A stretch of DNA of 64,000 nt from Patescibacteria group bacterium (GCA_023473545.1 JAMCXO010000002.1:6340-70339), one strand, 5' to 3'; counted from the stretch's first letter, positions 21,722-35,715 are shown. A program made the numbers and translations. The notes: generated from the sequence alone by a model not told the origin.

Positions 21722-22015
21722 TTAAAACTTCGAGATTACTTTTCCCATAATCTCCTTTTTCTCAATCCAGCCAAATTTTCCGCTGTCCAAACTATCTTTT
21801 CTATTGTCTCCTTCAACAAAATACCTATTCTCTTTTATTTTCTTAATTCTCTTAACAAAAACCCTTTCTGTGTTTCTATCTTTAAAAACTATGATATCGC
21901 CAATCTTGGGTTGGGAAATTAGATACGGAATATAACCAGCCAAAACCCTATCGCCTGTTTTAAACTGCGGTTCCATGCTGTGGCCAATAATCCTAAAAAA
22001 GGATAACAGAAGCAT
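21722..22015 (-). CDS. sodX: S26 signal-peptidase-like NiSOD maturation protease (SodX-like).
   Basis: Ser/Lys dyad context (GHSMEP, VKRIK) and SPase box E (GDNRKDSLDS). The start overlaps the sodN stop (TAATG). Confidence 0.65.
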   Translation of the reverse strand: MLLLSFFRIIGHSMEPQFKTGDRVLAGYIPYLISQPKIGDIIVFKDRNTERVFVKRIKKIKENRYFVEGDNRKDSLDSGKFGWIEKKEIMGKVISKF

Positions 22016-22512
22016 TATTTTGGCAGAACAATCTCTCCTCCTGTCGGATAAGAAGAGGAGACCTTAACTGTTTCCCGATTTTTGGTTTTCCAAAATATTT
22101 GAGCAAACTCCTGAACAGAGGAAAGCAGGTCGCTCGCGCTTTGTTTATCCACTTCCTGCCGGGTTTTGGAAGCAAGCTTCATAATTTTAAAAACCAGATT
22201 ATGCAAATCCGGATAGTCTTTTAGGTGTTCTTCTTTAAAATAATCCCCCCAAATGATTCTCACTTCGTGTTTAACCATTTCCGCGTGTTCTTCCTTTACC
22301 TTTGTGTATCTCGCGATCTTATGCATAAATTCTTTATCTCCTGTTTCAGTTTCTTCTTTTTTTAAATCAAGAATAAGATCGGTCATTCTAATAACAGTGT
22401 GGGCGGATACCTGGGCTAAATGAGGATCGTAAATGCCGCAGGGAATGTCGCAGTGGGCATAGGCAATTTGCCTGGGCACTATTCCTAAAAGAAAGTCAAA
22501 GGCAGTTTTCAT
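22015..22512 (-). CDS. sodN: Nickel-containing superoxide dismutase precursor. The pro-peptide MKTAFDFLLGIVPRQIAYA is followed by the Ni-hook HCDIPCGIYDP.
   Basis: The His-Cys-x-x-Pro-Cys-Gly-x-Tyr nickel-hook immediately after a short leader is diagnostic of NiSOD, and the adjacent S26 peptidase gene supports it. Confidence 0.85.
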   Translation of the reverse strand: MKTAFDFLLGIVPRQIAYAHCDIPCGIYDPHLAQVSAHTVIRMTDLILDLKKEETETGDKEFMHKIARYTKVKEEHAEMVKHEVRIIWGDYFKEEHLKDYPDLHNLVFKIMKLASKTRQEVDKQSASDLLSSVQEFAQIFWKTKNRETVKVSSSYPTGGEIVLPK

Positions 22513-22575: not shown

Positions 22576-22650
22576 TCCGGTGTGGCTCAATGGTAGAGCG
22601 GCTCCCTGTTAAGGAGATGGTTGTAGGTTCGAGTCCTACCGCCGGAGCCA
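22576..22650 (+). tRNA. tRNA-Asn (anticodon GTT) with encoded CCA.
   Basis: Hand-folded cloverleaf: acceptor TCCGGTG/CGCCGGA (one G-U pair), D-arm GCTC/GAGC, anticodon loop CTGTTAA, T-arm GTAGG-TTCGAGT-CCTAC, discriminator G + CCA. Confidence 0.85.
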
Positions 22651-24111
22651 AAGTTGACGAGAGGCGTAAAAAGCTATCTTGTCAAACGGATTTATCCAGT
22701 CATATCGGGCTTTTTTACCCTTCAGTTCTAAGTTCTGAAGTGCCATCTTCAAAAGTAGCCGTTTTTCGTGGGCTTCAGAACTCTCAAAGACTTTTCCAGC
22801 GTTTTCAGCCAGCTTTAGCAGGTAAGATGAGGTGATATAGTATTCCTCATCGGCAAATTGTAGCTTCTCAATTTTCTTGTTGATAGCCTTTTGTTTTGCC
22901 CGATACTCTTTTCGTTTTTTCTCATAGTAGCTCTCAGTAATACTGCCGTCTATTTTGTCTTCCCAAGCCCGCTCAATGCGGTTCTCGTATTTTTTGTATT
23001 CCGATTGGTAGCGATTAAGCAGGCTTTGATGAAACTCTGATTTGTCCTTATGTGAGCTTTTCAGGGAAGTGGCTATATCCTCAACTACATCAGGGGGCAT
23101 TTGGAGCTTGTCAAACAGGCTTACAAACTGTTTGGTTAAGTCGTCTTCTGTTAGCCACTCAGCCCCGTGTTTACCGTTATATTGAGTGCAGTGGTAGTAG
23201 TGATAGACATTTCCGCTTTTCTTTATCTTACGCTCAGGCGTAATCATACAACCGCAGTCGGCACACCTGATTAAGCCTCTATAAGGAAAAGCCAAGCCCG
23301 CATACTTAAAGCGTTTTTTGTTAAACCCTGCTTTTATATCCTGCACTTTGTCAAAAAGTTCTTGGTCAATTACTCGGTCGTAGTTGTGCGTGTATTCTTG
23401 CCCATCATAAAGCATTGTCCCGCAGTAAAAGGGGTTTTTGAGGATAAAATCAATCTTGCCTTTGGAAAAGTCAAAGCCAAACACTTCTTTAATTTTGTTT
23501 CTTACTTCAAGCATTGAGTAACTGCCTGTGGAATACCACTGATACATTTTCTCAACTATCTCTGCCTCTGGTTCGTCAATGCCTATCCATTTTGAGCCGT
23601 CCTCTCTGGTTATATTTTTGTAGCCGTAAGGGGCTTTACCAGGATACTCGTTTTTGCTTATCTTGAACTTGGCGGTATTGATAGCGTCTTCTTTGAGGCG
23701 GTTAAGGTATTGCTTAGCAAGAAAGACCTTCAAGTCCCAATCCTGAATATCCCTGCCAACGCTATCTTTGTTGATAACAAGGTGGTCGTAAACAAAGTGA
23801 ATTTCCTTGCCATAGTCCAGCCGTAGTTCATCAATCTTAACGGCATCTCGGTAGTTTCTGGTTATGCGGTCAACTCGGTAGGAAATGATAACTTTTATGT
23901 CGTCGCTTGCCTTAACAAACTCAATCATTTCGTTAAAGCGTTTGCGTATCTTGTAGTCGGCACTTTCGCTAAAAACAAACTCTTTGACCACCTCAAAATC
24001 TCTTTTGACCGCATAATCTCTAAGTTCAGGGAGTTGAATGTCCTTGAGCGATAAGCCTTCTTTTTCTTGTTTGAGTGTTGATACTCTGGCTAAAATTACG
24101 GCTTTGGTCAT
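22636..24111 (-). CDS. Large serine recombinase (integrase): resolvase catalytic domain, recombinase domain and zinc ribbon. Its 3' end overlaps the tRNA-Asn 3' end.
   Basis: N-terminal resolvase motif (AVILARVSTLKQ...SLKDIQ; YRVDRITR), C-terminal zinc ribbon (RCADCGCMITPE) and coiled-coil. Confidence 0.85.
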   Translation of the reverse strand: MTKAVILARVSTLKQEKEGLSLKDIQLPELRDYAVKRDFEVVKEFVFSESADYKIRKRFNEMIEFVKASDDIKVIISYRVDRITRNYRDAVKIDELRLDYGKEIHFVYDHLVINKDSVGRDIQDWDLKVFLAKQYLNRLKEDAINTAKFKISKNEYPGKAPYGYKNITREDGSKWIGIDEPEAEIVEKMYQWYSTGSYSMLEVRNKIKEVFGFDFSKGKIDFILKNPFYCGTMLYDGQEYTHNYDRVIDQELFDKVQDIKAGFNKKRFKYAGLAFPYRGLIRCADCGCMITPERKIKKSGNVYHYYHCTQYNGKHGAEWLTEDDLTKQFVSLFDKLQMPPDVVEDIATSLKSSHKDKSEFHQSLLNRYQSEYKKYENRIERAWEDKIDGSITESYYEKKRKEYRAKQKAINKKIEKLQFADEEYYITSSYLLKLAENAGKVFESSEAHEKRLLLKMALQNLELKGKKARYDWINPFDKIAFYASRQLWLRR

Positions 24112-24112
24112 A

Positions 24113-25483
24113 TCAGTTCAAAATCATAGCCTCAACTTGTTTTTTTGCTTCATTTAATAACTTAGAGGCTTCGGTTTTTAGTTTTTCTACTTCTTGATAT
24201 TTTTCCATAACTTTATTTGAAATATCTTTCTGCTTTTCTAGTGGGGGTAAAGGTAATAAGAAGCTCTGTATTGTAGGAATTGTAATGTTGCCTTGAATTG
24301 CCCCGATACGCTCTCTTTGGACTAGTAATTTTGAAATATCGCTATTCAGCCAGACTGATGCATAATTGTTATTAAGTTGCTCATTAAGCCTAAACTTAAT
24401 CATAAAAGAGCCATAAGCAAAGCCGTCAGCTTTTTTAGGAACTACCGCTACTATACCTATGCTTCCACTTCTTGAGATGAGCAGGTCATTTTCGTAAACA
24501 AAACAGTTGCCTATTTCTTTTTCCTTACTTTTTGGTAGATGAACAACATCAGTTAAATCTATATGATTAGGTTTTAGATTTAATATCCTAAGCAATGGTA
24601 TACCGTCAGCCATATAATCGTTTTTAACAGAAGCCCCGTAACGGATTTCGGTTATATAGTTACCAAGCTCTTTAATCGGGTATTTGCTACTCTTGAGTTG
24701 GTTTATGGTCGTCGCAAACTTTGGATTGTGATAATAGGGGTCTTGGCGGTTGCCATCTAGGTCTTGTGAGTTGACGGTATAGATTTTTTCTTCCTCTGGC
24801 TCTTGGTAGTCTATGCCTAGCTGTTGCCTTACAAAGCCATCAATAGAGCTTAGTAGCTCGTCGGCTTGTTTTAGTTTTTGTTCTCTTGTTTCATAGGCTT
24901 TTTTTAATAAGTTGGTTATCTGTTTTTGTTTCTCTTCTGGCAATATGGGTATTAGCAGGTCTTCAACATCTTTAGTTTGTAATCTGGGCAATGTATTGCC
25001 CGTCATCAAGTAAGATGTTTGATTGACAACTAGATGAGAGCTAAGAAAAGCAAAGAGATAGTAGTTACTGCACTTGTGGGCTTCCAAAATATGGAACTCA
25101 GTTGAACATATCCCCTCGGTTGTAGCTAAGTGAACTTTGTTTAGGTATGGTCGTAATTTTGGAAAAAGAATGTTGCCAGCATTAAAGCTAAACGCACTAC
25201 CAAACTCTTTGCCTTGATCAACATCAGAAGCTATACCCGTATCACCTTCTATATTTTCAAGACCAAAATAGGGCGTGTCTTCGCTTGCTTCGCTAACAAT
25301 ATCTCTTTTGAATGTTGCTACTTGGCTAAGAGGCAAAACATCACAACTGAGTGATTTAATTCTTTTGACGGCATTTAGCCTAGTTGGGTGGTATGCACTA
25401 GGGTCAAGTCTTCCCTCAAGGTCATTGTAATTAACAAAATAAGTGTTCATATTAACCCTTGTAACCAGGTGTATTTTTAACAA
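24113..25483 (-). CDS. Restriction-modification specificity subunit (HsdS-like, two target-recognition domains). The true start is probably the internal Met at about 25450.
   Basis: Two TRD halves, each followed by a conserved coiled-coil spacer (EEKQKQITNLLKK...; LEKQKDISNKVMEKYQE). Confidence 0.8.
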   Translation of the reverse strand: MLKIHLVTRVNMNTYFVNYNDLEGRLDPSAYHPTRLNAVKRIKSLSCDVLPLSQVATFKRDIVSEASEDTPYFGLENIEGDTGIASDVDQGKEFGSAFSFNAGNILFPKLRPYLNKVHLATTEGICSTEFHILEAHKCSNYYLFAFLSSHLVVNQTSYLMTGNTLPRLQTKDVEDLLIPILPEEKQKQITNLLKKAYETREQKLKQADELLSSIDGFVRQQLGIDYQEPEEEKIYTVNSQDLDGNRQDPYYHNPKFATTINQLKSSKYPIKELGNYITEIRYGASVKNDYMADGIPLLRILNLKPNHIDLTDVVHLPKSKEKEIGNCFVYENDLLISRSGSIGIVAVVPKKADGFAYGSFMIKFRLNEQLNNNYASVWLNSDISKLLVQRERIGAIQGNITIPTIQSFLLPLPPLEKQKDISNKVMEKYQEVEKLKTEASKLLNEAKKQVEAMILN

Positions 25484-27278
25484 ACCGCTTATACTCCTCT
25501 CGGATTTCCGTTAGGTCGTTCTTTGGGTCTTTTCTGCCCGTTGCGTCGTAGCCTATATGGTCGGCAATAGCCATAAAGATAGGATAATTACCTAGTTTTT
25601 CGTTATCGCTTTTGCGTCTGAGGAAAACCAGAGAGGACTTAACCCCAGCTCCAAAGTGAGCAAAGGCAAATTGTGGTAGGGACACAATCGCTTCTATCTG
25701 GCATTTGTCCATTATGTAATCCCTTACATACTGCAAAGAGGAGTTAGATAAAATACCGTCGGGCAAGACTATGGCAATCCTGCCCGTTTTGGGTTTGACA
25801 AAGTTCACACAACGCTCAATAAACAGAATTTCTGTTTTTTGGTTTTTCTTGCCTTTGCCAAGCTCGTAATGGTCAAGGTAGTTTTTCTCGGTTGATTTAA
25901 CCGTTGCCCCAAAAGGGGGATTGGTGAGAATTAGGTCAAAACGGTCTTTGCCAAACTTAGTGTGCAGGTCGTTTATCTCGCTAAAATCTCTCAAGCTGTC
26001 GGTGCTGATGATATTGGTGTGTCCGTCGTCGTGGATAATCATATTCATCTTGCAGACCCTTGCTATCTGGTCGTTTATCTCAATACCATAAAGGTTATTC
26101 ATCGCAAAACTATGCCAGTATTCTTTGGCTTCCCAGTCGTCGTAGTTTGCCTCTGCGAAGTTTCTCACTTCATCAAGCGAGTTGAGCAAAAAGCCCCCGC
26201 TACCGCAAGCGGGGTCTAGGACTAAATCGCCTCGTTGCGGGTTCATCATTTCAACGCAAAACCTGATGATTTCTCTTGGGGTAAAGAACTGTCCCATCTT
26301 GCCCTTAAAGAAGTCTTCCATAAACCGCTCAAAAGCAATTCCTTTGGTGTCTAGGTCAATTTTGTTAATAGCTAGCCCCTGTAAATGTTCTACAACGCTG
26401 TAAACAACTTTCGGGTCAAGCCTGATGTCTTCCTTAAAGACTTCGCTGTCTTCCTGTTTGGCTTTGAGGTAAATAGAGTTGACCCGCTTAAATACTTCGT
26501 CGGCTGTTTCGTGTGTGCCAATTTGGAATTTGTAAGGCTCGCCTCGTTTGGTTAGCTTTTCGTCTCTTAACTTGCAGAACAAAAGTTTAGACACTTCATC
26601 AAAGGCGGTTGTTGGAGCTAATTTGCCACCTTGCCAGACAGTATCGTGGCTCTTGCCAAGAGCGGTTATCAACTCATCTTTGGAAACGGTTTTAAGCTCT
26701 TTGTCTTCTTCTCCTTTAATAAACCTGTATTTGGGCGTTCTGCCGTATTTAACGGGAATATCGGCAATGACATTTTTCTCTCGCTCGCTTGGCTTAAAAC
26801 CCGCAATATCAAAAGCAGTTTTGGTCGTGCCAGCTACCACTATGGCAAACTTGGCTCTTAGGCTGTTGGCGTTACCAAAGGCTTGCTCTATGGCTTGCTT
26901 AAACTCGGCGTCGGTTACCCCGTCTTTTTTGCACTCAACGATAAGGTAGGGGGTCTTGAGGTCATCGTCTTCGTAAATAACAATATCTGCTCGGTCTTCT
27001 GGGGTTCTTCTTGGGACAGTTACCTCAATGTCAATCTGGTTTTGGGGATATTGGTAGTCAAGGACAAGCTCAACAAAATAGGAAGCTCTAATCGTTTCTT
27101 CTGGGTTTTTGAACGAGGTTGAGTAATCCCTTGAGCAATGGTAGATAATGCGGGCGTTATCGTCAGTAAAAGAGATTAAGCCCTCTTGCTTGCCTCTTTC
27201 AATGTTTCTTAAAAAGATTGAGCCTCTGTCGTTGTTATTTGTCATTTTTCCTTTCATAACTGGTAATAAAGCGGTCAA
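25452..27278 (-). CDS. Fused restriction endonuclease-methyltransferase subunit (BcgI A-like): N-terminal PD-(D/E)xK nuclease (HSDR_N-like) plus gamma-class N6-adenine methyltransferase.
   Basis: Nuclease motif D(IVIYEDD)...LIVECKK in the first 120 aa; MTase motif I LDPACGSGGFL; motif IV LTNPPFG. Confidence 0.8.
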   Translation of the reverse strand: MTALLPVMKGKMTNNNDRGSIFLRNIERGKQEGLISFTDDNARIIYHCSRDYSTSFKNPEETIRASYFVELVLDYQYPQNQIDIEVTVPRRTPEDRADIVIYEDDDLKTPYLIVECKKDGVTDAEFKQAIEQAFGNANSLRAKFAIVVAGTTKTAFDIAGFKPSEREKNVIADIPVKYGRTPKYRFIKGEEDKELKTVSKDELITALGKSHDTVWQGGKLAPTTAFDEVSKLLFCKLRDEKLTKRGEPYKFQIGTHETADEVFKRVNSIYLKAKQEDSEVFKEDIRLDPKVVYSVVEHLQGLAINKIDLDTKGIAFERFMEDFFKGKMGQFFTPREIIRFCVEMMNPQRGDLVLDPACGSGGFLLNSLDEVRNFAEANYDDWEAKEYWHSFAMNNLYGIEINDQIARVCKMNMIIHDDGHTNIISTDSLRDFSEINDLHTKFGKDRFDLILTNPPFGATVKSTEKNYLDHYELGKGKKNQKTEILFIERCVNFVKPKTGRIAIVLPDGILSNSSLQYVRDYIMDKCQIEAIVSLPQFAFAHFGAGVKSSLVFLRRKSDNEKLGNYPIFMAIADHIGYDATGRKDPKNDLTEIREEYKRFVKNTPGYKG

Positions 27279-27438
27279 GGTCGGGTTTGTTTATGCGGTA
27301 TTGTTTACCCGCTTTATACGCCTTGAGCTTGCCGTCCTGTATCCAGCGATAGACCGTCAGATAAACCACCTTGAGCATTTTTGCCACTTCTTCTATGGTG
27401 TAGTATTTTTCTTCTGTCATATTAGCTGTATTTAACAT
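27235..27438 (-). CDS. Excisionase/MerR-like HTH DNA-binding protein.
   Basis: YTIEEVAKMLKVVYLTVYRWIQDGKLKAYK matches excisionase-family HTH proteins; the location in a mobile element supports it. Confidence 0.55.
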   Translation of the reverse strand: MLNTANMTEEKYYTIEEVAKMLKVVYLTVYRWIQDGKLKAYKAGKQYRINKPDLDRFITSYERKNDK

Positions 27439-28594
27439 TATTTAACATTTCTTCTTGATTTGCAAGTAGTTTTAATGGCTCAAAATCAGTTATCTGCTTT
27501 CGGAGTAGAGAGAATACGCTAACCTCATCAGCATAGTTAAGTTTTTGGATTTTCTTGTTTAGACTATACCAGTAGTAATTGCCGTGTCTTTTAGTCATCT
27601 GCCTGTAATCCCTTACACCAATTTCCTCAAGCAACATTCTGAAGCCAGTAAGCTCAAGAGCTTGAGTGGGTTTCAGTTTTGGGTTTGCTACCAATAGTCT
27701 CTCAAAGAACTTTTTAGGGCTGTCGTATTGATATGTCAGTAAAGTCGGATAGGCTTCTTCAATCTCGTTGATGTAATAAAGCAATACCCTTTTAGCCGTA
27801 TCTTGGTTAAAGATGTTTGTAAAAGTTGGTTCTACTTTTTTACCAATTTTGTTGAGGATTTGGTTGATTTTCTGCCGTTTGTTTAGCCGTATCTCAACTC
27901 GCAATACCTCAAATGGTTTTCGTTGGGTCAGAACATCAAATAAGCCAAGCTGCAGGGCATTATCCTTTTCTTCAGCTCGTTTTTCGCTAATTTTAGCTTG
28001 CTCTAAGTCCTTGATTTTGTCGTAAAAAACAATCTCAAACGAGTTAGCCCGATACTTGAAGCTATGCCCCTCGTTCCTAAAATCAGTTCTGTTTGTATCC
28101 AGCCGTTTATTGATATTGAGCTTGGTTAGTTGTTCAAGGTAAGTATAGGGCGTCGTATAGTCAGTTAAGGCTATATTTTTAGAGTAATGGACTGATGAAA
28201 CGGGAGCGTTTATCAGGTTTTTCTCAAAGAGGTAAACACCCATTTCTTTTAGGACGGCTTTAAGTTTTTGGATGATAGTAGGAAAATCAGTGTCCGTTAG
28301 CTCGTCAAAGTTATTGCCGTAAAGCAGTTTTGGAATAGAAAATTCAATTTTAAGCGGCATCTCAAAATTACCCTCTCGGTTTATCCGCTTGGTAACAGTT
28401 AGTCTGGGCTTATAAAGACCTCTCTTAAGTTCATTTGCAGTTGGGTTTTGCTTGCAAGTGATATTAGACCTACCACCCAAACGATAATAGCCAGTAGTTG
28501 GGTCAGTAAGCCCTCTGGTTGACGGACTAAAAAAGTCAGGTTCAAATATCGTATACATACCTGTATTAAGGGTTAAAACGATTGTGTCTATCAT
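27422..28594 (-). CDS. Hypothetical element protein, possibly a replication/initiator-type protein; no confident family.
   Basis: 390-aa ORF overlapping its neighbours on both sides in the element cargo. Confidence 0.3.
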   Translation of the reverse strand: MIDTIVLTLNTGMYTIFEPDFFSPSTRGLTDPTTGYYRLGGRSNITCKQNPTANELKRGLYKPRLTVTKRINREGNFEMPLKIEFSIPKLLYGNNFDELTDTDFPTIIQKLKAVLKEMGVYLFEKNLINAPVSSVHYSKNIALTDYTTPYTYLEQLTKLNINKRLDTNRTDFRNEGHSFKYRANSFEIVFYDKIKDLEQAKISEKRAEEKDNALQLGLFDVLTQRKPFEVLRVEIRLNKRQKINQILNKIGKKVEPTFTNIFNQDTAKRVLLYYINEIEEAYPTLLTYQYDSPKKFFERLLVANPKLKPTQALELTGFRMLLEEIGVRDYRQMTKRHGNYYWYSLNKKIQKLNYADEVSVFSLLRKQITDFEPLKLLANQEEMLNNVKYS

Positions 28595-28859
28595 AGTTGT
28601 TCATTACTTCTTCAAACCGCCTTACAATTTCGTTTTCTATTAACTGGGCAAACTCTCGGTTAATCGGATAAAAAATGTTGAGGCTTCTATCGGCTACCTT
28701 TTTAGTGGGGTAAACGAGCCTGTAGCTCCCATTAGGACGGGTCATAATGCCGATTGAGCCCAGATAGAGGTTTTGGTCTAAGACAAAGCTCGCAAATGCC
28801 ACTAAGCCGTTTTGCGGTTTTATAGGTATGATTTGAATTTCACTTAATCGGTTTGTCAT
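28566..28859 (-). CDS. SpoVG-family protein.
   Basis: LVAFASFVLDQNLYLGSIGIMTRPNGSYRLVYPTKK aligns with the SpoVG core (KAFASITLD..FVVHDIRVI.G.NGLFVAMPS.K). Confidence 0.55.
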   Translation of the reverse strand: MTNRLSEIQIIPIKPQNGLVAFASFVLDQNLYLGSIGIMTRPNGSYRLVYPTKKVADRSLNIFYPINREFAQLIENEIVRRFEEVMNNYDRHNRFNP

Positions 28860-28946
28860 AAGTCCTCGTTACATTTTCCCTGCGGTCAATTTCTATAAGC
28901 ACAGCAAAGAAATCAGCTAATCGCTTCTTTTCTTCAGGCGTCAAAA

Positions 28947-28967
28947 CAAACCCCTTTTTCAGGGGTT
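28947..28967 (-). terminator. Candidate intrinsic terminator on the - strand: stem AAACCCC/GGGGTTT with a 7-nt loop, followed by GTTTTG. It lies about 110 nt downstream of the 482-aa gene.
   Basis: Perfect 7-bp inverted repeat seen in the sequence, with a U-rich tract on the transcribed strand. Confidence 0.35.
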
Positions 28968-29075
28968 TAATCTTCTCAAGCTGAATGACTTTGCCGTTTT
29001 CCATTAAGCAAAGTCTAAGAAAAGAGGTGTGAGCTGAAGTTGTATTGCAGTTAGCTAACTGTTAGCTAATGCTGA

Positions 29076-30524
29076 CTAGAGGTATTTGGGATTTAGTTGA
29101 ACGGTTGATTTGTTGAAAATCAAAAGGTCATTAACGCCTGTCTTTGAGGCTATATGCTTAGACAGCCCATCGCAAGCGGGATAAAACTTATTTTTATTTT
29201 CTTTGGTTAGTTCCTCGTCTTTAGTATCCTCTATGGTTTCTATAACTTCGTCCCAAGACCACTCTTTTTTACGGCTCTTATCGTCTTTTAGCAGTAATTC
29301 AAGCAGTTTTGCCCTGAAGCTGTTTTTGTTTAGTTTGACCTTTTTGCCTTCAACATCCAGCTCGCCTTTCTGGGCATTGTAAGTAACCCTCAATTTTACT
29401 TTGCTTTGGTCTATTTTTAATTCGTCAGTTTTAGGCTTACTCTTGTTTTCCTCATTGGATTTTTGGCGTTTTTCAAATTCAGCCTTAAGAGCTTTATAGA
29501 AATCGTCAAACTTTATAAGGTCAATTCTTATATCTATGTTGCCGTATCCCACAACATCATCATTGTCATAATTGGCTTCCAGTGCGATACCTTCTCTAAG
29601 TAAGTATTGAGCACCTTCCCAGCGGTGCTGTTGGTAGCTTTTCCTTGTGCCTATGCTATCGTAGGGAAACAGCTCTAAAAATCTACCGATATACGGATAG
29701 GGAAATGATGGAATTACTACAGTGGTGCTTCTAGTCATCTGAAGTTGCTGGTCAATATCCGAGCAAACATCAAGGATTTTGAGAAGGTTGAGCCAGTCAA
29801 GATTATTGGGCTTTGATTTTTGTTTCAGCAAGTATTGTCCATACCAGTCATCAAAACCATCGTGGCATTTAACGAGAATAAAATTGGGATTTTTTGGTTG
29901 TTGATTAAGTGGGAGTAAACGATTGGTTTCTCGCCAAACAGTCAGGATTTTTTCTTCTTCTTGGAGTTTGTTCAAAATGCCGTATATTTCCTCTCTCTGA
30001 AACCCATCAAGACCGTTATTAGCACTTTTATAAAACAATTCTGTGGTTTGCCCTTTGACCGTAGCCTTTTTAGCTTCAACCAATGCCTTGAGAATAAGGT
30101 CTAGCTTTTCTTCATAGGTAATCAAAGTATCATTAGCGAGCTTTGTCGGGCTATCTGTTGGCTTCTTCCCCGTAAACTCTTGATATTCAGGTTCTTGTTG
30201 GATTTTCCAGAAATAGTCGTCAAAAGCGGGTAAAAGTTCAATATGCCAGCAGCCGTCGTCTTGCTGATAAGGTGGGTCGTAGGGGTCAAGGTCTTCAACG
30301 ATTTCTACTCTACTTATCCCGCTTGGCACTTGTAAAACCTTCAAAATCTGCTCATCCTTTTCCAGCTTGGTAAATAACTGTTTCAGTTCAATATCTCTAT
30401 ATTTGCGGTTAAGGTCGTTTGTCGGGTCTATTATCAACGGTTGACCCGATGGGGCTAATACCCGTGCATCGTTAATCGCTTCCAGTAGAAAATAAAGTTT
30501 TTCCTTGCCGTCCATCATAATCAT
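29076..30524 (-). CDS. Hypothetical 482-aa protein; no recognisable domain.
   Basis: Long uninterrupted ORF; it is the first gene of the co-directional cargo block. Confidence 0.5.
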   Translation of the reverse strand: MIMMDGKEKLYFLLEAINDARVLAPSGQPLIIDPTNDLNRKYRDIELKQLFTKLEKDEQILKVLQVPSGISRVEIVEDLDPYDPPYQQDDGCWHIELLPAFDDYFWKIQQEPEYQEFTGKKPTDSPTKLANDTLITYEEKLDLILKALVEAKKATVKGQTTELFYKSANNGLDGFQREEIYGILNKLQEEEKILTVWRETNRLLPLNQQPKNPNFILVKCHDGFDDWYGQYLLKQKSKPNNLDWLNLLKILDVCSDIDQQLQMTRSTTVVIPSFPYPYIGRFLELFPYDSIGTRKSYQQHRWEGAQYLLREGIALEANYDNDDVVGYGNIDIRIDLIKFDDFYKALKAEFEKRQKSNEENKSKPKTDELKIDQSKVKLRVTYNAQKGELDVEGKKVKLNKNSFRAKLLELLLKDDKSRKKEWSWDEVIETIEDTKDEELTKENKNKFYPACDGLSKHIASKTGVNDLLIFNKSTVQLNPKYL

Positions 30525-30775
30525 TACTTTTTCAAGAAATTATACTGTCTCTATTTTATCATTGTTTAACACTCTAAGGAAGGATTTTTAGAGGTTAGGC
30601 AGTAGCAAGGGCGGGTTGTTTCAATCCCAAGTTTTCAAAGAGGATTTTGAGGTCGCTAAGGGTTATACTAAACTCTAGTTGTTGGTTGCAGAACAAGTCT
30701 TTTAGGGGGAGCACTAACGTACAGAAATAACCAACAAATTACACAAACGAACACAGCCTCAATCCTAACATCCAC

Positions 30776-30815
30776 TTGACAGATGTAAGGAATAATTGGT
30801 ATAATCCTTACATCT
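30776..30815 (+). promoter_or_regulatory. Strong sigma-70 promoter (TTGACA, 18-nt spacer, TATAAT) overlapped by a perfect 11-bp inverted repeat AGATGTAAGGA-N13-TCCTTACATCT. Putative operator controlling the Fic gene.
   Basis: Consensus -35 at 30776..30781 and -10 at 30800..30805. The IR arms at 30781..30791 and 30805..30815 straddle the -10 element and the predicted TSS. Confidence 0.55.
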
Positions 30816-30835
30816 AATATTAAAATGTTAGGCTT

Positions 30836-31993
30836 ATGAAAATCGGTAAGCTCATCCAACAACCCAGTGGGTATCAGGCATTTATCCCAGACAAATTCCC
30901 TCCAAAAGAGCAAATTGTTCTGAACTCCAAAACCCAGCAGCTTCACGCCAAGGCTGTGCTTATGCTGGGTAAATTAGATGGCATTACTCAATTACTTCCT
31001 GACCTGGATTTTTTCATTTTTATGTATATCCGCAAGGAAGCGGCTAAGTCAAGCGAGATTGAGGGGACTCAAGCCACCATTATTGATGTCATTAAAAGCG
31101 AGGCACAAATTGAAAGCCGTTTTCCACAAGATGTTGAAAGAATCATTCACTATATCAATGCTATGGAATATGGCTTGAATCGATTGGAAACCTTACCGTT
31201 ATCACTTCGGTTTATTAGGGAAATCCATAAGGTACTGATTGGTGGTACGATTGACGCTCCCGGTAAAACACCAGGAGAATTTAGGACCTCCCAAAATTGG
31301 ATCGGCGGAGGTTCTCCCAATACTGCTAAATTTGTACCACCAACACACGCAGAAATGAACCGATGCCTAGATGACTTTGAAAAATTTTTGCATGCTACCA
31401 ACGAGTACCCGCCACTTATTAAAGCAGCTTTAGCGCATGCCCAATTTGAAACCATCCACCCGTTCCTTGATGGTAATGGCAGAACTGGCCGGCTTTTAAC
31501 TACTTTTTATCTTTGTAAACTGGGTATCCTTGAAAGGCCAGTACTTTACCTATCTGAATACTTTTTGAATAACCAAAAGGCATATTACGGGTCGTTAAAT
31601 TCTTATCACCAAGAAGATGCTGATGTTTTCGGTTGGCTTGATTTCTTTTTAGATGGGGTGGCTATCATTGCGACAGAGGCAATTGAGGCGTCAAAAAAAA
31701 TCAATATTTTACGCCAGAAAGATACTATTAAGATTCAATCTTTGGGGCGGAGAACAAAAACAGGCATGATAGTTTTGGAAAATCTTTTTAAGCTTCCAAT
31801 TATCAGTGTCAGAAAAGTCGAAGAATGGACGGGGCTTTCTCGTCCCCAAGCCAACGATCTAGTTAAAAAGCTTATAGAGCTAGGAATTCTTGAGCAAAGA
31901 AATAAAAATATCAAGTATGACAGGGAATTTTGGTATAAAAAGTATCTTGATGTTTTCGTGAGTAAAGAAGAAATTAAAAAATCAAATGAATAA
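30836..31993 (+). CDS. Fic/DOC family protein (AMPylation-type motif) with N-terminal inhibitory motif.
   Basis: Canonical HPFLDGNGRTGR (HxFx(D/E)GNGRxxR), an upstream SxxxEG (SSEIEG), and a C-terminal winged-helix-like region. Confidence 0.85.
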   Translation: MKIGKLIQQPSGYQAFIPDKFPPKEQIVLNSKTQQLHAKAVLMLGKLDGITQLLPDLDFFIFMYIRKEAAKSSEIEGTQATIIDVIKSEAQIESRFPQDVERIIHYINAMEYGLNRLETLPLSLRFIREIHKVLIGGTIDAPGKTPGEFRTSQNWIGGGSPNTAKFVPPTHAEMNRCLDDFEKFLHATNEYPPLIKAALAHAQFETIHPFLDGNGRTGRLLTTFYLCKLGILERPVLYLSEYFLNNQKAYYGSLNSYHQEDADVFGWLDFFLDGVAIIATEAIEASKKINILRQKDTIKIQSLGRRTKTGMIVLENLFKLPIISVRKVEEWTGLSRPQANDLVKKLIELGILEQRNKNIKYDREFWYKKYLDVFVSKEEIKKSNE

Positions 31994-32157
31994 ACCTGAC
32001 TTTACCCTCGATAAAATCAAATTTGCCATTGATCAACCGACATTCAAGAAAGCAATGGCGCTATACGAAAGTGGCAAGGTTACCCAAGTCGAAGAAAGTA
32101 TTCGATTGTGTATAGGAGTTGTAAATGGCACAATGTCAGCGCATTCGATAAATTGAT
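31987..32157 (+). pseudogene. Short ORF (56 aa) that looks like an N-terminal fragment of a larger protein; probable gene remnant at the decayed end of the element.
   Basis: MNKPDFTLDKIKFAIDQPTFKKAMALYESGKVTQVEE, then a stop. Over 1 kb of AT-rich non-coding DNA with further out-of-frame fragments follows. Confidence 0.25.
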
Positions 32158-32553
32158 AATTTTATCAGTAGACCTAATGGATTAACTTTTGAAAAGATTT
32201 TTACAAAATCTTACACAAATTTTGGCTGCCACACTTCTATAAACTTCGTTAATGAAAAATTATGGGATATTTTCCTTTTTATATAGTGAGGTCTTTCAAT
32301 TAACTCCATCTTCCATTGAGTAAAATCGCCATATTTTCTCAATATACCGACTTTTTACCTGGATCAAACAAGCTGCCCAACGAAAGCAATACAATATTTC
32401 CTTTTACCAACAACAGTGGAATATCATTAAAGATGCCATTGCCCAGCAAATGAAACTTGAATTAACTGCTACCTAAGTGCGAAACTCGTGTAATTCTCCA
32501 ATTATTCCTGCCATTTTTTATTCCTTTCTATTATAGTGTGATATAATCCAGCT

Positions 32554-32805
32554 GTGTTTAAAAAAACAAAAGGATTTATCTCTAGTTTAATAACAATTAT
32601 TTTATTAGTAGCCATATTTCCTACATTATTTATTATTACTTTTATTGATTTTCCTCTTTATTTTTCTTCGTTTCCCTTAATAGTTCCTATATTAGGTTTT
32701 TTATTAGCTGCAGAAACAGGACTTTTTCTTATCGCGATTTTTCATTTAGTTAAAAATCTTAGTCTATCCTTTAAATCTCTTTCTCGGAAAACTAAAGTTG
32801 CTTGA
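32554..32805 (+). CDS. Small hydrophobic protein (83 aa, about 3 TM segments) in very AT-rich DNA.
   Basis: Preceded by a TGATATAAT extended -10 at about 32536; entirely hydrophobic. Confidence 0.3.
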   Translation: MFKKTKGFISSLITIILLVAIFPTLFIITFIDFPLYFSSFPLIVPILGFLLAAETGLFLIAIFHLVKNLSLSFKSLSRKTKVA

Positions 32806-33205
32806 GAAAAATATTTAATGTGCGATATTATTTTATTTTTTAATTATCTCTTTCTTCTATTTCTTTCTTATTTAGGGATTGAGATAATTAAGTCTTCATG
32901 GCCTACTAATAAAAGTACGGCTATGATCGCTCTCATTCCGTTATTATTGGGATTTTTCTTCTTTGTTTTCCCCACAACGCATAGTGGGATTTATAGTTCT
33001 ATGCTTTGCATTCTTCCTTAATTTTTAAAGAGCCACTAACTACTTCTTTTTTGTTATATACAGTAATACAATATCTTTTTGGGTCTGGGAAATCAAGGTA
33101 GAACTAAAAAATGTGGGTGAATCTTGTAGAGTTTTTTCATTTCCTCTTTGCTTATAATAATTATGACTGATTAATCGCAACGGAACTTTCTGTTATAATT
33201 TCATC

Positions 33206-33739
33206 GTGAATCTTATTTTTCTTTACGGAGCACCTGCGGTTGGTAAATTAACCATAGCAAAAAGTCTTGAACAAAAAACAGGATACAAACTTCTGCATAA
33301 TCACTTGCTTCAAAATCCTATCTCGGAGATTTTTTCATTTGATAATCCTTCTAACAGGCTTCTTGTAAGAGAGTTCCGTATGCGGATATTGGAAGAGGCT
33401 ATCAGGAGCAATATAAATCTTATTTTTACTTTTGGTATTGCAGGCAACAAGCCTTTTGACCATATAGATGGTATTGTTAATACTGCTAAATTACACGGAG
33501 CAAAAATATATATTGTGCAGCTTATAGCCGATAAAGAAACTCTTTTAGAAAGAGTAGAAAATCAATCAAGGAAAGACCATGGCAAAAATTTATCAAAGGA
33601 TTACTTGAAGAAATTATTTAGTGAAAATTCTGACATGTTAGATAAATATCCGAAGTTAGACCATTTAACTATTGATACTAAAAGTTTCACACCAGAACAG
33701 TCTGCAATTAAAATAATTGAATTCTATAAAATTGCCTAA
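33206..33739 (+). CDS. P-loop NTPase/kinase-like protein (AAA_33 / small-molecule-kinase-like).
   Basis: N-terminal LIFLYGAPAVGKLT glycine-rich loop; about 177 aa. Confidence 0.45.
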   Translation: MNLIFLYGAPAVGKLTIAKSLEQKTGYKLLHNHLLQNPISEIFSFDNPSNRLLVREFRMRILEEAIRSNINLIFTFGIAGNKPFDHIDGIVNTAKLHGAKIYIVQLIADKETLLERVENQSRKDHGKNLSKDYLKKLFSENSDMLDKYPKLDHLTIDTKSFTPEQSAIKIIEFYKIA

Positions 33740-33833
33740 CTGAGGAAATGTTCACAAATCGGTTTAAGGATAATATATTATCGCCTTAAATTGTTCCTGA
33801 CCGATTTATTAAAAGCTCTGATATAATCAACTT

Positions 33834-34253
33834 ATGAAGTTACCGCCTTATGTAAAATCAAAAAAATACATTGATTTTTTGCCAGTGCTAGGAAAATCAA
33901 CCGCCAATGCAATATATCCTTTTATTTTTTTGCCTGAGAAAATATTCAAAGATTTAAAAGGAGCAAATCCAAATCCGCGTAACAAAGCCCTTTTAAGACA
34001 CGAAGAAACCCATAGAAAAAGGCAAGTTCGGCAAGGAATATTCAAGTTTTGGATAAAATATTTATTGAATCCTAAGTTCCGTTTTAATGAGGAATTAATG
34101 GCTGATATAGAATATATGAAAGTTATTAAAAATAATAATCTTAAGTTTAATATAGAAAAAAGAGCGAAGCAATTATCGGGGCATTTATACCTCTGGCCAG
34201 CAAACTATAAAAAGGCTAAAAATAAACTAGAAGAAGCTTGGAATAGGAAGTAG
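33834..34253 (+). CDS. Hypothetical basic protein with an HExxH motif (HEETH).
   Basis: ORF with LRHEETHRKRQ; no family recognised. Confidence 0.35.
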   Translation: MKLPPYVKSKKYIDFLPVLGKSTANAIYPFIFLPEKIFKDLKGANPNPRNKALLRHEETHRKRQVRQGIFKFWIKYLLNPKFRFNEELMADIEYMKVIKNNNLKFNIEKRAKQLSGHLYLWPANYKKAKNKLEEAWNRK

Positions 34254-34259
34254 TTTCTT

Positions 34260-34287
34260 GTCAAAATAACCCTGTCAAAATAACCCT
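34260..34287 (+). repeat. Perfect tandem 14-bp direct repeat GTCAAAATAACCCT x2, followed by a TTGACAAA half-copy. Candidate regulatory site upstream of the GH15-like gene.
   Basis: Seen directly in the sequence. Confidence 0.6.
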
Positions 34288-34413
34288 TGACAAATGCCCT
34301 TTGCCCTTTTTAAACTTGATACTATTAACCAAAAAATAAATCATGCGCGCGGATAGACTTTTTAAAATAGCGCCGGCTCCTGTCGGCGAGATTTATTTTA
34401 AAAACCTTACCTG

Positions 34414-35715
34414 TTGGTTATGGCAATTATAGAAAGACAAGGATATCTTTATCTGCCCACAGCCGCTTTACCGGAGATAGGATTTCCCAACGAACCTCTT
34501 AGCGCGCAAAGAGAAACCGACCTTCTCGAAAGCAGCGAGAAAGAATTACTTATCATTTTAGATGAACAGGATCCGGGCGGCTTGTTTCCTGCATCAACAA
34601 GATTATCCCGAGATATATTTAACCATTACGATTGCCATTGGCCAAGAGATGGATTCATAACTGCCAAAGCATTGGTAGATTCCCGCGTTCTTAACCGCTA
34701 TCCTCAAAATAGTAAAATGGGGAGAAGAATCCGTTCAAGCTCAAATCTTTATTTCGGAAAAACCCTGGAAATGCTTAATGAAGAAGCCGACAATGGCAAA
34801 TTTATGCCAGGAATAGAAAAAGGGAAAGAAATTAATACGGCAGACCCTCAAAAACTGCCTAGGATCCACACCAAAATTGACGGCTCTTTTTGCGAATGGT
34901 ATGCCAATAATCAGCCTGATTCATTTGGCCACTGCTTAACAGCCATTGGGCAGGCAATTCAGAACCGGGTCTTTATTCCAAACGAAAGGGGAATACAAAT
35001 CATCGAAAAAATAGCAGGATACCTTGTGCATATAGAACCTTGGAAATTCAAAGCCAGCAGTATGTGGGAGGATCAACAGGTGTTTCCTCCGCCTCTATCA
35101 ACTGTTGCCTTCGTAAGACAAGGTCTTTTAACCATAATGCCATTTATGCCAAAACGGGAACTTCAGGAAAGAATTGAGGAAACTGCCTTCCATTGCAGAG
35201 AATATCTGATAAAAAATTACCCTCGCGAAAAAACAACGCCAAATCATCCGGGAGAATTTGATCTGGCAACCGGCATCGCGCTGGGAGAAGGGGCTTTTAG
35301 CGATATTAAGGATATTGATCCCCGAGAATGGCTCGAGGCGGCAAAAAGCCTAGGCAGAGAAGACTGCCCCGGCAAGATACGATTTTGGGGAGACCCATAT
35401 CATAATCCTTATAGCCATTCGACAGAGGGTGTTCTCACAGAAGCACCGTGGCCGATGGGTCTTCTTTACGAAGCAAAGATATATTTAGATCTATATAAAC
35501 AAACATACGTAGAGAAATATAGGAACCTCGCTTTTGACAAACTGCAGAAGGCAATGGATATAGGAACACAATACGGTTTTAGACCTGAACTCCTCGAACA
35601 GTTTAGGCCTCATGAATTTAAACTTCCGGAAAAACCAAATCAACTCTTGTGGGATATGGCTGTCTACATAAGGGTGTGTCATGAAGCCGCCGAAGTTTTG
35701 CAACCGGCGGCCTAA
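34414..35715 (+). CDS. Glycoside hydrolase family 15-like (glucoamylase / phosphorylase-kinase-regulatory-like) protein.
   Basis: Weak resemblance to the (alpha/alpha)6 GH15 core (HWPRDG, SFGHCLTAIGQA); low-confidence family assignment. Confidence 0.35.
   Translation: MVMAIIERQGYLYLPTAALPEIGFPNEPLSAQRETDLLESSEKELLIILDEQDPGGLFPASTRLSRDIFNHYDCHWPRDGFITAKALVDSRVLNRYPQNSKMGRRIRSSSNLYFGKTLEMLNEEADNGKFMPGIEKGKEINTADPQKLPRIHTKIDGSFCEWYANNQPDSFGHCLTAIGQAIQNRVFIPNERGIQIIEKIAGYLVHIEPWKFKASSMWEDQQVFPPPLSTVAFVRQGLLTIMPFMPKRELQERIEETAFHCREYLIKNYPREKTTPNHPGEFDLATGIALGEGAFSDIKDIDPREWLEAAKSLGREDCPGKIRFWGDPYHNPYSHSTEGVLTEAPWPMGLLYEAKIYLDLYKQTYVEKYRNLAFDKLQKAMDIGTQYGFRPELLEQFRPHEFKLPEKPNQLLWDMAVYIRVCHEAAEVLQPAA

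Follow-up and report, generated by a model that had tools for sequence, protein, structure and literature searches.

Large serine recombinases (LSRs) of the phiC31, Bxb1 and A118/LI Int type combine resolvase, recombinase, zinc-ribbon and coiled-coil parts, act on short attachment (att) sites without long repeats and are encoded beside attP. Targeting of tRNA genes by LSRs was called ‘not reported previously’ in a study that gives 14 of 297 candidates (PMC7192596), and among integrative and mobilizable elements (IMEs) those with serine recombinases disrupt dispensable genes, whereas tyrosine integrases use tRNA 3′ ends (PMC5704250). Here, we analyze a 64,000-nucleotide stretch of DNA from a Patescibacteria group bacterium (GCA_023473545.1, JAMCXO010000002.1:6340-70339; ‘the window’ hereafter), in which positions 22649..30712 (8,064 bp) very probably hold an integrative element that is intact, belongs to a widespread family and was inserted by an LSR at the extreme 3′ end of a tRNA-Asn(GTT) gene. 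The LSR resembles the phiC31, Bxb1 and A118 integrases in architecture, in its short att sites and in the position of its gene (int) beside attP, but differs from them in that its target is a tRNA 3′ end (cf. Mageeney et al.), attP and attB resemble each other in their left half-sites, with a tRNA mimic on the attP side, the right half of attB is unconserved, and the int open reading frame (ORF) crosses attP. Systematic targeting of tRNA 3′ ends, a P arm that mimics a tRNA and at the same time serves as coding sequence, and an int ORF cut by the crossover are unusual for LSRs.

Several other systems share some of these properties. In the part of PMC4383910 that cites Tojo et al. [quoted passage not shown] As in the window, integration of these elements into a tRNA gene alters or partitions the integrase, here by exchanging 38 C-terminal residues for three; by contrast, Mx8 and SSV use tyrosine recombinases and long attP/attB identity, whereas our element has a serine recombinase and a 4-5-nt core. 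In the literature searched, we found no report of an int ORF across attP for an LSR. Islander-type islands likewise integrate in the 3′ part of a tRNA gene and regenerate it, but our element has a serine rather than a tyrosine integrase, and the far-end tRNA repeat is reduced to a mimic. IMEs and integrative and conjugative elements (ICEs) with MobT/Rep_trans proteins (ICEBs1 NicK, Tn916 Orf20) and serine-recombinase IMEs (Tn4451) are also small integrated elements with an integrase, an excisionase-like helix-turn-helix (HTH) protein, a Rep_trans-like protein, whose probable counterpart here could replicate or mobilize the excised circle, and cargo such as restriction–modification (RM) genes (PMC5704250). 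Unlike those, our family occupies candidate phyla radiation (CPR), Chloroflexota, Cyanobacteria-related and other hosts, not Firmicutes, and its link to Rep proteins is structural only. Tycheposons of Prochlorococcus, 27 of 937 of which carry an LSR, are tRNA-associated as well and combine site-specific integrases, replication genes and cargo, but the great majority use tyrosine recombinases, and their replication genes differ; the parts of that preprint bearing on this comparison describe no int gene across attP and no tRNA-mimic arm (Hackl et al., bioRxiv 10.1101/2020.12.28.424599). Finally, unlike rolling-circle plasmids of the pT181 family, our element integrates, and its putative origin lies in the integrase gene rather than in rep and has a different nick sequence.

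The target, tRNA-Asn(GTT), occupies 22576..22650 on the plus strand and has an encoded CCA end. It is the single tRNA that ARAGORN finds in the window, is intact (ARAGORN; Rfam, 67 bits), and was the sole match in an Rfam scan of the element. The 491-amino-acid (aa) LSR gene (22636..24111, minus strand) encodes a protein ending in SRQLW-LRR and overlaps the tRNA by 15 nt: its TAG stop codon (22636-38) is the CTA of the T-stem 3′ strand read antisense, and its last four codons, W-L-R-R, arise where the acceptor 3′ strand and CCA are read on the opposite strand. Pfam finds the Resolvase (PF00239, 9e-12), Recombinase (PF07508) and Zn_ribbon_recom (PF13408) domains in the protein, which also matches the phrog_95 integrase of PHROG (3.5e-62). 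Across 40 homologs, the catalytic R9-V10-S11, the D81-R82 and R85 of the DRxxR motif and the zinc-ribbon cysteines C283, C286 and C308 are invariant, and an AlphaFold2 (AF2) model of a homolog forms the coiled coil from helices 340-387 and 393-416. An earlier reading of the same DNA (the original prediction) had described an intact tRNA-Asn(GTT) overlapped for 15 nt by a serine integrase in an apparently CPR-like host, and had named a degenerate catalytic serine as a refuting outcome; the description holds, for the host by the source name, and the catalytic serine is intact. Housekeeping genes flank the element, with Ni-superoxide dismutase (NiSOD), S26 peptidase, Pth and PNPase on one side and IF-2 on the other, and the surrounding 15.6 kb is 99.9% identical to a contig of the metagenome-assembled genome (MAG) GCA_023379465.1.

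We set the element boundaries by comparing 119 related loci (cited by our L numbers; homologous proteins by P numbers). On the left, an alignment of 15 Asn loci shows int DNA conserved up to GAGCCA, after which the tRNA body follows the host. On the right, blastn of the region beyond the 482-aa gene against all loci returns one conserved stretch of ~100 nt (window 30604..30713), which recurs in L019 (87%), L002, L003/4, L031, L026 and L030 and stops each time at 30712/13; in the tRNA sense, this distal end reads GGTTGCAGAACAAGTCTTTTAGGGGGAGC and continues into host DNA with an A. The original prediction had placed an integrated element at 22576-32160 and had suggested comparison with relatives lacking the insert to define its right end. 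Comparison with loci that carry related elements upholds the integrated element but moves its end to 30712 and its length from ~9.6 to 8.06 kb, so that a Fic gene and a decayed AT-rich stretch, both previously assigned to the element, lie outside. A GAGCCA at 33030 was also considered as the right end and was rejected because homology mapping places the end at 30712.

For seven elements, attL, attR, attP and attB were reconstructed from both junctions. attL consists of the tRNA through GGAGC followed by CAAAGTTGACGAGAGG, the int 3′ end, and attR of a tRNA-like arm ending in GGGGGAGC followed by the host trailer. In the window, the attL core GGAGC (22644..22648, plus strand), recognized by identity between the tRNA end and the distal P arm, spans the last acceptor pair, the discriminator and the first C of CCA, with the crossover predicted to fall inside it; the distal-end copy lies at 30708..30712 (plus strand). 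The P′ arm of attL, CAAAGTTGACGAGAGGCGTAAAAAGC (22649..22675, plus strand), overlaps the last int codons and is conserved directly after GAGCCA in the 15 aligned Asn loci. At the other end, the P arm of attR, GGTTGCAGAACAAGTCTTTTAGGGGGAGC (30684..30712, plus strand), is a mimic of the tRNA T arm and acceptor 3′ half; 19 such distal ends were found, and homology ends sharply at this point in L002, L003, L019, L026, L030 and L031. Aligned by eye, ~15 of the last 24 nt of the P arm match the tRNA 3′ half without an indel (GAATAAGTCCTTTAGGGGGAGCCA versus GTTCGAGTCCTACCGCCGGAGCCA). The B′ side (30713..30835, plus strand) is the original tRNA trailer, host DNA that carries the Fic promoter, and the reconstructed attB sites of relatives end in terminator hairpins.

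GGAGC is the sole identity between the recombination partners; the tRNA-Gln element L019 has GCAGC in both arms, and L013 has GAGC alone. From these sequences, the crossover is placed in the 4 nt that immediately precede the second C of CCA, with a core narrowed to NAGC, and AG would be the crossover dinucleotide because GC is palindromic. By comparison among relatives, attP is reconstructed as the tRNA-mimicking P arm, the 4-5-nt core (GGAGC) and the P′ arm (the last ~25 nt of int), and attB as the tRNA 3′ end plus an unconserved trailer. For the host of the window, the predicted junctions are CCGCCGGAGCACTAACG for attB (longer form, ...GAGTCCTACCGCCGGAGCACTAACGTACAG...) and GGGGGAGCCAAAGTTGACG for attP (longer form, ...AAGTCTTTTAGGGGGAGCCAAAGTTGACGAGAGG...). 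The reconstructed attP has the same form as tandem junctions seen in L031, L026, L042 and L077 and as the attP of circular contigs. With the crossover in GGAGC, directly ahead of the CCA end, host DNA is predicted to make up the tRNA body, which recombination leaves intact, the element giving only the CA of CCA plus the trailer, and the original tRNA gene would have read ...GGAGCAC..., without an encoded CCA. The earlier proposal that the element supplies the tRNA 3′ terminus is therefore right for these last 2 nt and the trailer but not for the body, as 96%-identical integrases lie beside tRNA-Asn genes with different, internally complementary acceptor and T stems. Apart from a 14/16-nt match in L014, which is the mimic at the distal arm of that element, no long direct repeat of the tRNA 3′ end was found in the window or nine relatives, in agreement with the prediction that no long att repeat exists. 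Nor was a directly repeated, displaced piece of the tRNA found at the far end, which has only the degenerate mimic and the 5-nt core.

The reconstructed attB trailers (B′ arms) are unrelated to one another and contain terminator hairpins in three cases (L002, L009, L013), as expected downstream of a tRNA gene. Because the P arm resembles the tRNA 3′ half and the B′ arms share nothing, Int would need only a tRNA-like left half-site plus the core. With such a requirement, attL would resemble attP and attR would resemble attB, which would explain the tandem arrays described below.

The family extends well beyond this host. A one-genome-per-species scan found 32 loci with integrase relatives, and a metagenome scan added 80. 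Hosts include Shapirobacteria, Beckwithbacteria, Gottesmanbacteria, WWE3, Paceibacterota, Peregrinibacteria, Dojkabacteria and Berkelbacteria, as well as Dehalococcoidia, Chloroflexia, Cyanobacteria/Caenarcaniphilales and MAGs labeled Gammaproteobacteria. Abutment of int and a tRNA is far beyond chance because it recurs across many phyla at 71 of ~100 homologous int 3′ ends, each meeting a convergent tRNA 3′ end; by type, our census lists tRNA-Asn(GTT) at 57, tRNA-His at eight, tRNA-Arg(ACG) at five and tRNA-Gln at two, with no tRNA at 28 and a contig end at two. Sequence comparison shows apparent retargeting of relatives to tRNA-His, tRNA-Arg and tRNA-Gln with a matching change of the P arm.

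Junctions that lack a complete tRNA fall into two groups. In the first, int is followed by 3′ tRNA-Asn fragments (L030 ~10316..10370, L050, L072, L116, L107 and L082) cut in the T loop, anticodon loop or anticodon stem. These fragments indicate that other elements use the same tRNA, and later insertion of tyrosine-type elements would produce them. In the second, one of two recurrent non-tRNA sequences directly follows int...TGGCTC, either GAGAATCGTA... (L027 ~4368, L118 ~10715) or CGACTGGTTGACTATGTGAGAAC..., which encodes WLRLVDYVRTYF (L029 ~10300, L023 ~10762, L112 ~592, L100 ~3832); these may be other arm types or secondary targets. Two relatives are of the Gln type. A 3.7-kb decayed copy at tRNA-Gln(TTG) (L019 7773..11528) has int in three frames and a truncated Rep-like gene, and its distal arm, GGGGCAGC, matches the Gln acceptor end. 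In L124 (343..6911), int bears its tail, attP reads GGGGCAGCCA, and the cargo comprises HEPN_AbiV, DUF559, several zinc-ribbon proteins and an M48 peptidase.

Evidence for movement comes from free and tandem copies. Contigs encoding P0015 from two samples (L121, L122; 8,331 and 8,323 nt) are exact circular permutations, and a contig from a third sample (L123) crosses the circle junction; the attP of these circles matches our reconstruction. Together, these contigs indicate a free 8.3-kb circle or possibly a tandem repeat (metagenomes SRR15237799, SRR15237813 and SRR15237816). In another contig, L120 (9.6 kb), the ends overlap by 8 nt and the backbone is complete. In the tandem array of L042, the gene of a 96%-identical integrase extends into the distal arm belonging to a second element, and the integrase of that second element (59% identical) abuts tRNA-Asn. 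Arrays also occur in L003, L015 and L030, where a distant second LSR takes the same position. These second LSRs are 23-25% identical to the window integrase (L030 6406..8115, L003 258..1829, L015 15082..16422). In L030 and L003 they lie just upstream of the distal arm of the neighboring element, the 569-aa L030 enzyme reading into that arm and ending in the same tail peptide (RLPLRDLFINKKLEFG...), and in L015 the gene lies within the array, with a full element on one side and, on the other, a remnant of the int 3′ end at tRNA-His. This distribution suggests that several LSR lineages may share the tRNA-mimic arm as a target.

From its intactness and its relatives, we infer that the window copy is active. 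Several observations weigh against this conclusion or against a mobile element at this site. The exact predicted empty site has 0 matches in metagenome contigs, exact-protein look-ups of NiSOD and Fic from the flanks yielded nothing but occupied contigs and, uninformatively, contigs broken within the tRNA, the element has the GC content of its host (40.3% versus 40.2%), and circular contigs could in principle be tandem repeats. A search for close relatives through NiSOD homologs found the nearest to be only 69-72% identical, with synteny not conserved in Levybacteria. A fixed, domesticated island, in which the recombinase gene simply adjoins the tRNA and the copy has lost its mobility, would account for the equal GC content, for the failure to find either an empty site or a circular junction for this host and for the near-identical copies, in an NCBI MAG contig and two Logan assemblies (L001, L037, L038), all being occupied. 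We nevertheless regard domestication as very unlikely: the backbone genes, the catalytic serine and a 38-codon tail ORF are all intact, 96%-identical integrases reside at different tRNA-Asn genes in different contexts with different cargo, and relatives are found as free circles.

The tail ORF just mentioned is the displaced 3′ piece of int. Read in the int sense, the distal arm continues the int frame, so that ...SRQLW is followed directly by the 38 codons LPLKDLFCNQQLEFSITLSDLKILFENLGLKQPALATA and a TAA stop (30595..30712, minus strand), and joining the two window pieces gives a 526-aa ORF. Each of 18 non-redundant distal ends keeps the int-continuous frame open, over 28-53 codons (38 in the window), and the other two frames mostly close within 2-14 codons. 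Despite DNA divergence, the peptide pattern LPL.DLF.N..LE...L..LK..F is kept (L005, L009, L054), and our translation of the tRNA-His lineage L014 at 3037 gives WGDLLDLFLN. Beyond the first ten tail codons, variability in codons 11-33 rises from position 2 through position 1 to position 3 (493/697/821); synonymous and non-synonymous single-nucleotide changes in the tail number 281 and 320, so that 47% of single-nucleotide codon differences are synonymous. A search of 5.8 billion proteins with the 526-aa Int returned 694 matches at E<1e-30, most of which cover 93% of the query (485-504 aa) as tail-less integrated forms, with a tail-bearing minority (P0009, P0014, P0015, P0026, P0108). Open frame, coding bias, long-form proteins and circles together support a tail that joins int only in the excised, attP form. 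By this comparison, the int frame crosses attP, and the excised circle is predicted to encode a 526-aa Int in which the final 38 residues (LPLKDLF.N..LEF...) show conservation at the protein level.

Integration would move these 38 codons 8 kb away, where the piece has no in-frame start on the host side, and shorten Int from 526 to 491 aa, with LRR replacing the conserved tail. The integrated gene runs antisense into the tRNA and stops after WLRR, and the residues after W-L are, as read from the DNA, whatever the antisense tRNA encodes: beside a different tRNA-Asn in L002, the ORF of a 96%-identical integrase ends in WLPL, and in L003 our reading has the ORF run further into the tRNA. Two observations count against a protein-level role of the tail. 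First, AF2 models the catalytic, recombinase, zinc-ribbon and coiled-coil parts of a long-form homolog well but the tail at low confidence (predicted local confidence, pLDDT, 39-54), giving no structural clue to a role. Second, the first ~10 tail codons overlap the Int binding site, and part of their conservation is at the DNA level. Conservation might then reflect only DNA constraint on the P arm of attP, whose first ~30 nt are the tRNA-mimicking binding arm, with an extension that has no protein function. We consider this explanation unlikely, as codons 11-33 lie beyond the arm and still show the coding pattern of variability and synonymous change, none of the 18 distal ends closes the frame, not even in lineages (L005, L009, L054) whose one common feature is the amino-acid pattern, and the distant LSR of L030 (23% identity) ends in the same tail peptide.

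The tail swap would alter Int activity between the free and integrated states. One speculative possibility, which we advance tentatively, is a built-in directionality or copy-state switch that shares its gene with a replication origin at the coiled-coil tip. Only the excised circle would make full-length Int, with the LPLKDLF..LEF tail, driving integration into tRNA 3′ ends; the integrated copy would make tail-less Int, either excision-prone or inactive until the HTH_17 protein of the element acts. If true, the tail swap, together with a P arm that makes attL like attP and attR like attB, would constitute directionality control of an LSR unlike the paradigm of coiled coil and recombination directionality factor.

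The proposed origin derives from truncated copies of int. Only the last ~310 nt of the gene remain at L026, L027, L028, L029, L030, L100, L015 and L024/L119, giving at least eight remnants from ~7 distinct junctions, as L024 and L119 are the same sequence. All begin at the same point, ...G(T/A)/ATTAC..., and their upstream partners differ, being two points in the 482-aa gene, a fragment of an IS3-like gene (identified by eye from the ORF) and int codon 155, with only short similarity in common. Three of these loci (L026, L030, L100) are mini-elements bounded by the distal arm and the int 3′ fragment. The breakpoint coincides with a candidate nick-site motif, GGCAGT/ATTACT (carried by GGCAGTATTACT and GACGGCAGTATTACTGAG). 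In the window it reads GACGGCAGT/ATTACTGAG (22933..22950, minus strand), at the coiled-coil tip (D388-G-S390/I391-T), and a nick would fall between 22942 and 22941. Exactly at GAC GGC AGT ATT ACT GAG, third-position conservation among 39 full-length int genes jumps from ~0.5 to 0.9-0.97; it stays raised through much of the final ~100 codons except around residues 410-418, where it dips. The Ser, Ile and Thr codons of the motif are always AGT, ATT and ACT, down to lineages of 42-48% identity. TATTAC occurs in 26 of 26 elements with a gene for the 390-aa protein and is absent in L008 and L009, both without such a gene within 10 kb.

Deletions that share one end at a conserved motif but differ at the other are the classic hallmark of deletion from the nick site in rolling-circle replicons. 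The retained side, from the int 3′ piece through attP and the distal arm onward, is what a strand displaced from a nick in the int sense would carry. Because the fixed breakpoint lies at a conserved motif and the retained side fits a displaced strand, we lean towards reading 22933..22950 as the double-strand origin or origin of transfer (dso/oriT) of the 390-aa protein (27422..28594, minus strand), a probable Rep_trans-like rolling-circle initiator or relaxase. This protein would nick GGCAGT/ATTACT inside int and let the excised circle replicate, or be mobilized, by a rolling-circle mechanism. We found 1,981 homologs of it, and its tyrosines Y150, Y152, Y191 and Y343 are invariant. Neither the protein nor 32 family members matched any Pfam family, PF02486 included, even at E<=5, and searches of the PDB were negative by sequence, profile and Foldseek. 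TATTAC is also present in two elements in which no homolog of the 390-aa protein was seen, an observation that does not favor a dso/oriT. The breakpoint could instead be a secondary or pseudo recombination site of the serine recombinase, or the target of another element, with the 390-aa protein in another role. To the left of the junctions stand GGGAGA, GGGGCGA and CCGGAGT, which bear a loose resemblance to the att core GGGGAGC, a second, distant LSR is nearby in L003, L015 and L030, and neither Foldseek nor profile searches support a Rep identity; this alternative is a realistic though minority possibility. Two further ideas were abandoned. An attP inside int at ~codon 388, in an SSV-like partition, or a post-excision scar would explain the int 3′ fragments, but both were rejected because full-length int abuts the tRNA, attP is at the ORF end and the second breakpoint varies. 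Reading the left flanks of the fragments as att-like arms was dropped because they are mostly two more homologous codons (G-R/S).

Upstream of int, the genes of the element are all on the minus strand and mostly overlap. The gene list of the original prediction, a two-gene RM system, an excisionase-like HTH protein, a 390-aa protein, a SpoVG-like protein, a 482-aa protein and a divergent Fic gene, was confirmed by Pfam, NCBIfam and PADLOC. Maps by tblastn give a backbone order of [482-aa] - SpoVG-like - 390-aa - HTH_17 - [cargo] - int. The 67-aa HTH_17/excisionase-family protein (27235..27438, minus strand; PF12728, 3e-16; TIGR01764, 5e-18), whose gene stays beside the 390-aa gene in relatives, is a candidate recombination directionality factor or regulator and would help excision. 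The SpoVG-like backbone protein (28566..28859, minus strand; PF04026, 7e-9) is conserved in relatives, and the 482-aa protein (29076..30524, minus strand) is present in part of the family (tblastn matches in L002, L003, L006 and L030). A consensus scan alone places a promoter-like site, TAAACA-18-TATAAT, upstream of the 482-aa gene (30539..30568, minus strand).

Between the HTH gene and int lies a slot that, by comparison among loci, appears to hold varied defense genes. In the window, it carries a 608-aa fusion of an HSDR_N_2 (PD-(D/E)xK-type) domain with an N6-adenine methyltransferase (25452..27278, minus strand; PF13588 and PF02384; PADLOC MTase_I, 1e-141) and an HsdS-like specificity (S) subunit (24113..25450, minus strand; PF01420; PADLOC Specificity_I, 3e-48). 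PADLOC reports the Type I M and S genes; there is no HsdR, and the nuclease domain is fused to M, a layout that suggests a BcgI-like Type IIB system. The HTH, methyltransferase and S proteins (24113..27438) are also MAD1-, MAD2- and MAD5-like, far below the NCBIfam cut-offs (44/80, 311/720 and 121/400 bits), and no other mad genes were found by NCBIfam or PADLOC. The same nuclease-methyltransferase plus S system fills the slot in L003 and L005, L002 has a 295-aa ORF there, L013 and L017 have an empty slot, and the circles carry either N6_N4_Mtase plus ResIII or AbiV-HEPN plus an M48 peptidase.

This gene content bears on what kind of element it is. We conclude that it is probably IME-like (PMC5704250), a small integrative and mobilizable element with rolling-circle replication that owes its integration to a phage-type LSR. 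A small temperate phage or phage satellite would also have a phrog_95 integrase, an excisionase-like HTH protein and, as here, 482-aa, SpoVG-like and small ORFs of no assigned role; moreover, a 7-10-kb circle resembles the small single-stranded DNA phages, some of which have Rep_trans initiators. Among ten element proteins scanned, however, PHROG matched no virion, packaging or lysis gene, the attP pattern has 0 matches in IMG/VR viral contigs, and a BFVD fold search gave only two unnamed matches, leaving a phage or satellite little probability. Of the proteins that the original prediction had suggested searching against phage databases, the integrase thus finds a PHROG family, and the 390-aa and 482-aa proteins have no family match; for the 482-aa protein, the searches covered Pfam, PHROG, NCBIfam, PADLOC and the PDB.

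To the right of the element lies the divergent, SoFic-like Fic gene (30836..31993; PADLOC, 2e-109). A consensus scan finds a perfect TTGACA-18-TGnTATAAT promoter for it (30776..30805) in the former tRNA trailer. The idea that Fic belongs to an older tandem element was rejected, as no int 3′ remnant lies right of attR and no second distal-arm motif occurs in 20-36 kb. Fic-family genes are found within a few kb of int or int remnants in L015, L023, L029 and L033. Beyond Fic, up to a small kinase-like gene, the DNA is AT-rich (31% GC; window 32000..34300) and has short ORFs only, and no att-like arm was found in it; the NCBI contig L001 ends at window 32873, and the GAGCCA at 33030 stands alone. 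In the other host flank, Ni-superoxide dismutase is followed by a short S26-type peptidase (window 21722..22512), a pair that also occurs in the distant relatives L125 and L128 and presumably corresponds to sodN-sodX, a maturation pair uncommon among reduced genomes. In L125 (1..6510; OBEQ010891029.1), from a genome with a 65%-identical NiSOD, a related element with SpoVG, 385-aa Rep-like, HTH_19, 405-aa and 486-aa LSR genes is also close to the NiSOD region, with one 433-aa gene in between; window 34414..35715 likewise holds a gene of this length.

More broadly, insertion of large DNA relies mainly on serine integrases, whose natural members have been thought to avoid tRNA genes. Reproducible use of the last bases of tRNA-Asn, -His, -Arg and -Gln by this family provides testable rules for LSR site choice and landing sites that are universally present. 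An integrase gene that lies across attP means that the free and integrated states would encode different enzymes, which could explain how the direction of recombination is controlled. Finally, reduced-genome CPR bacteria, Chloroflexota and others appear to share a small, probably self-replicating vehicle for defense genes.

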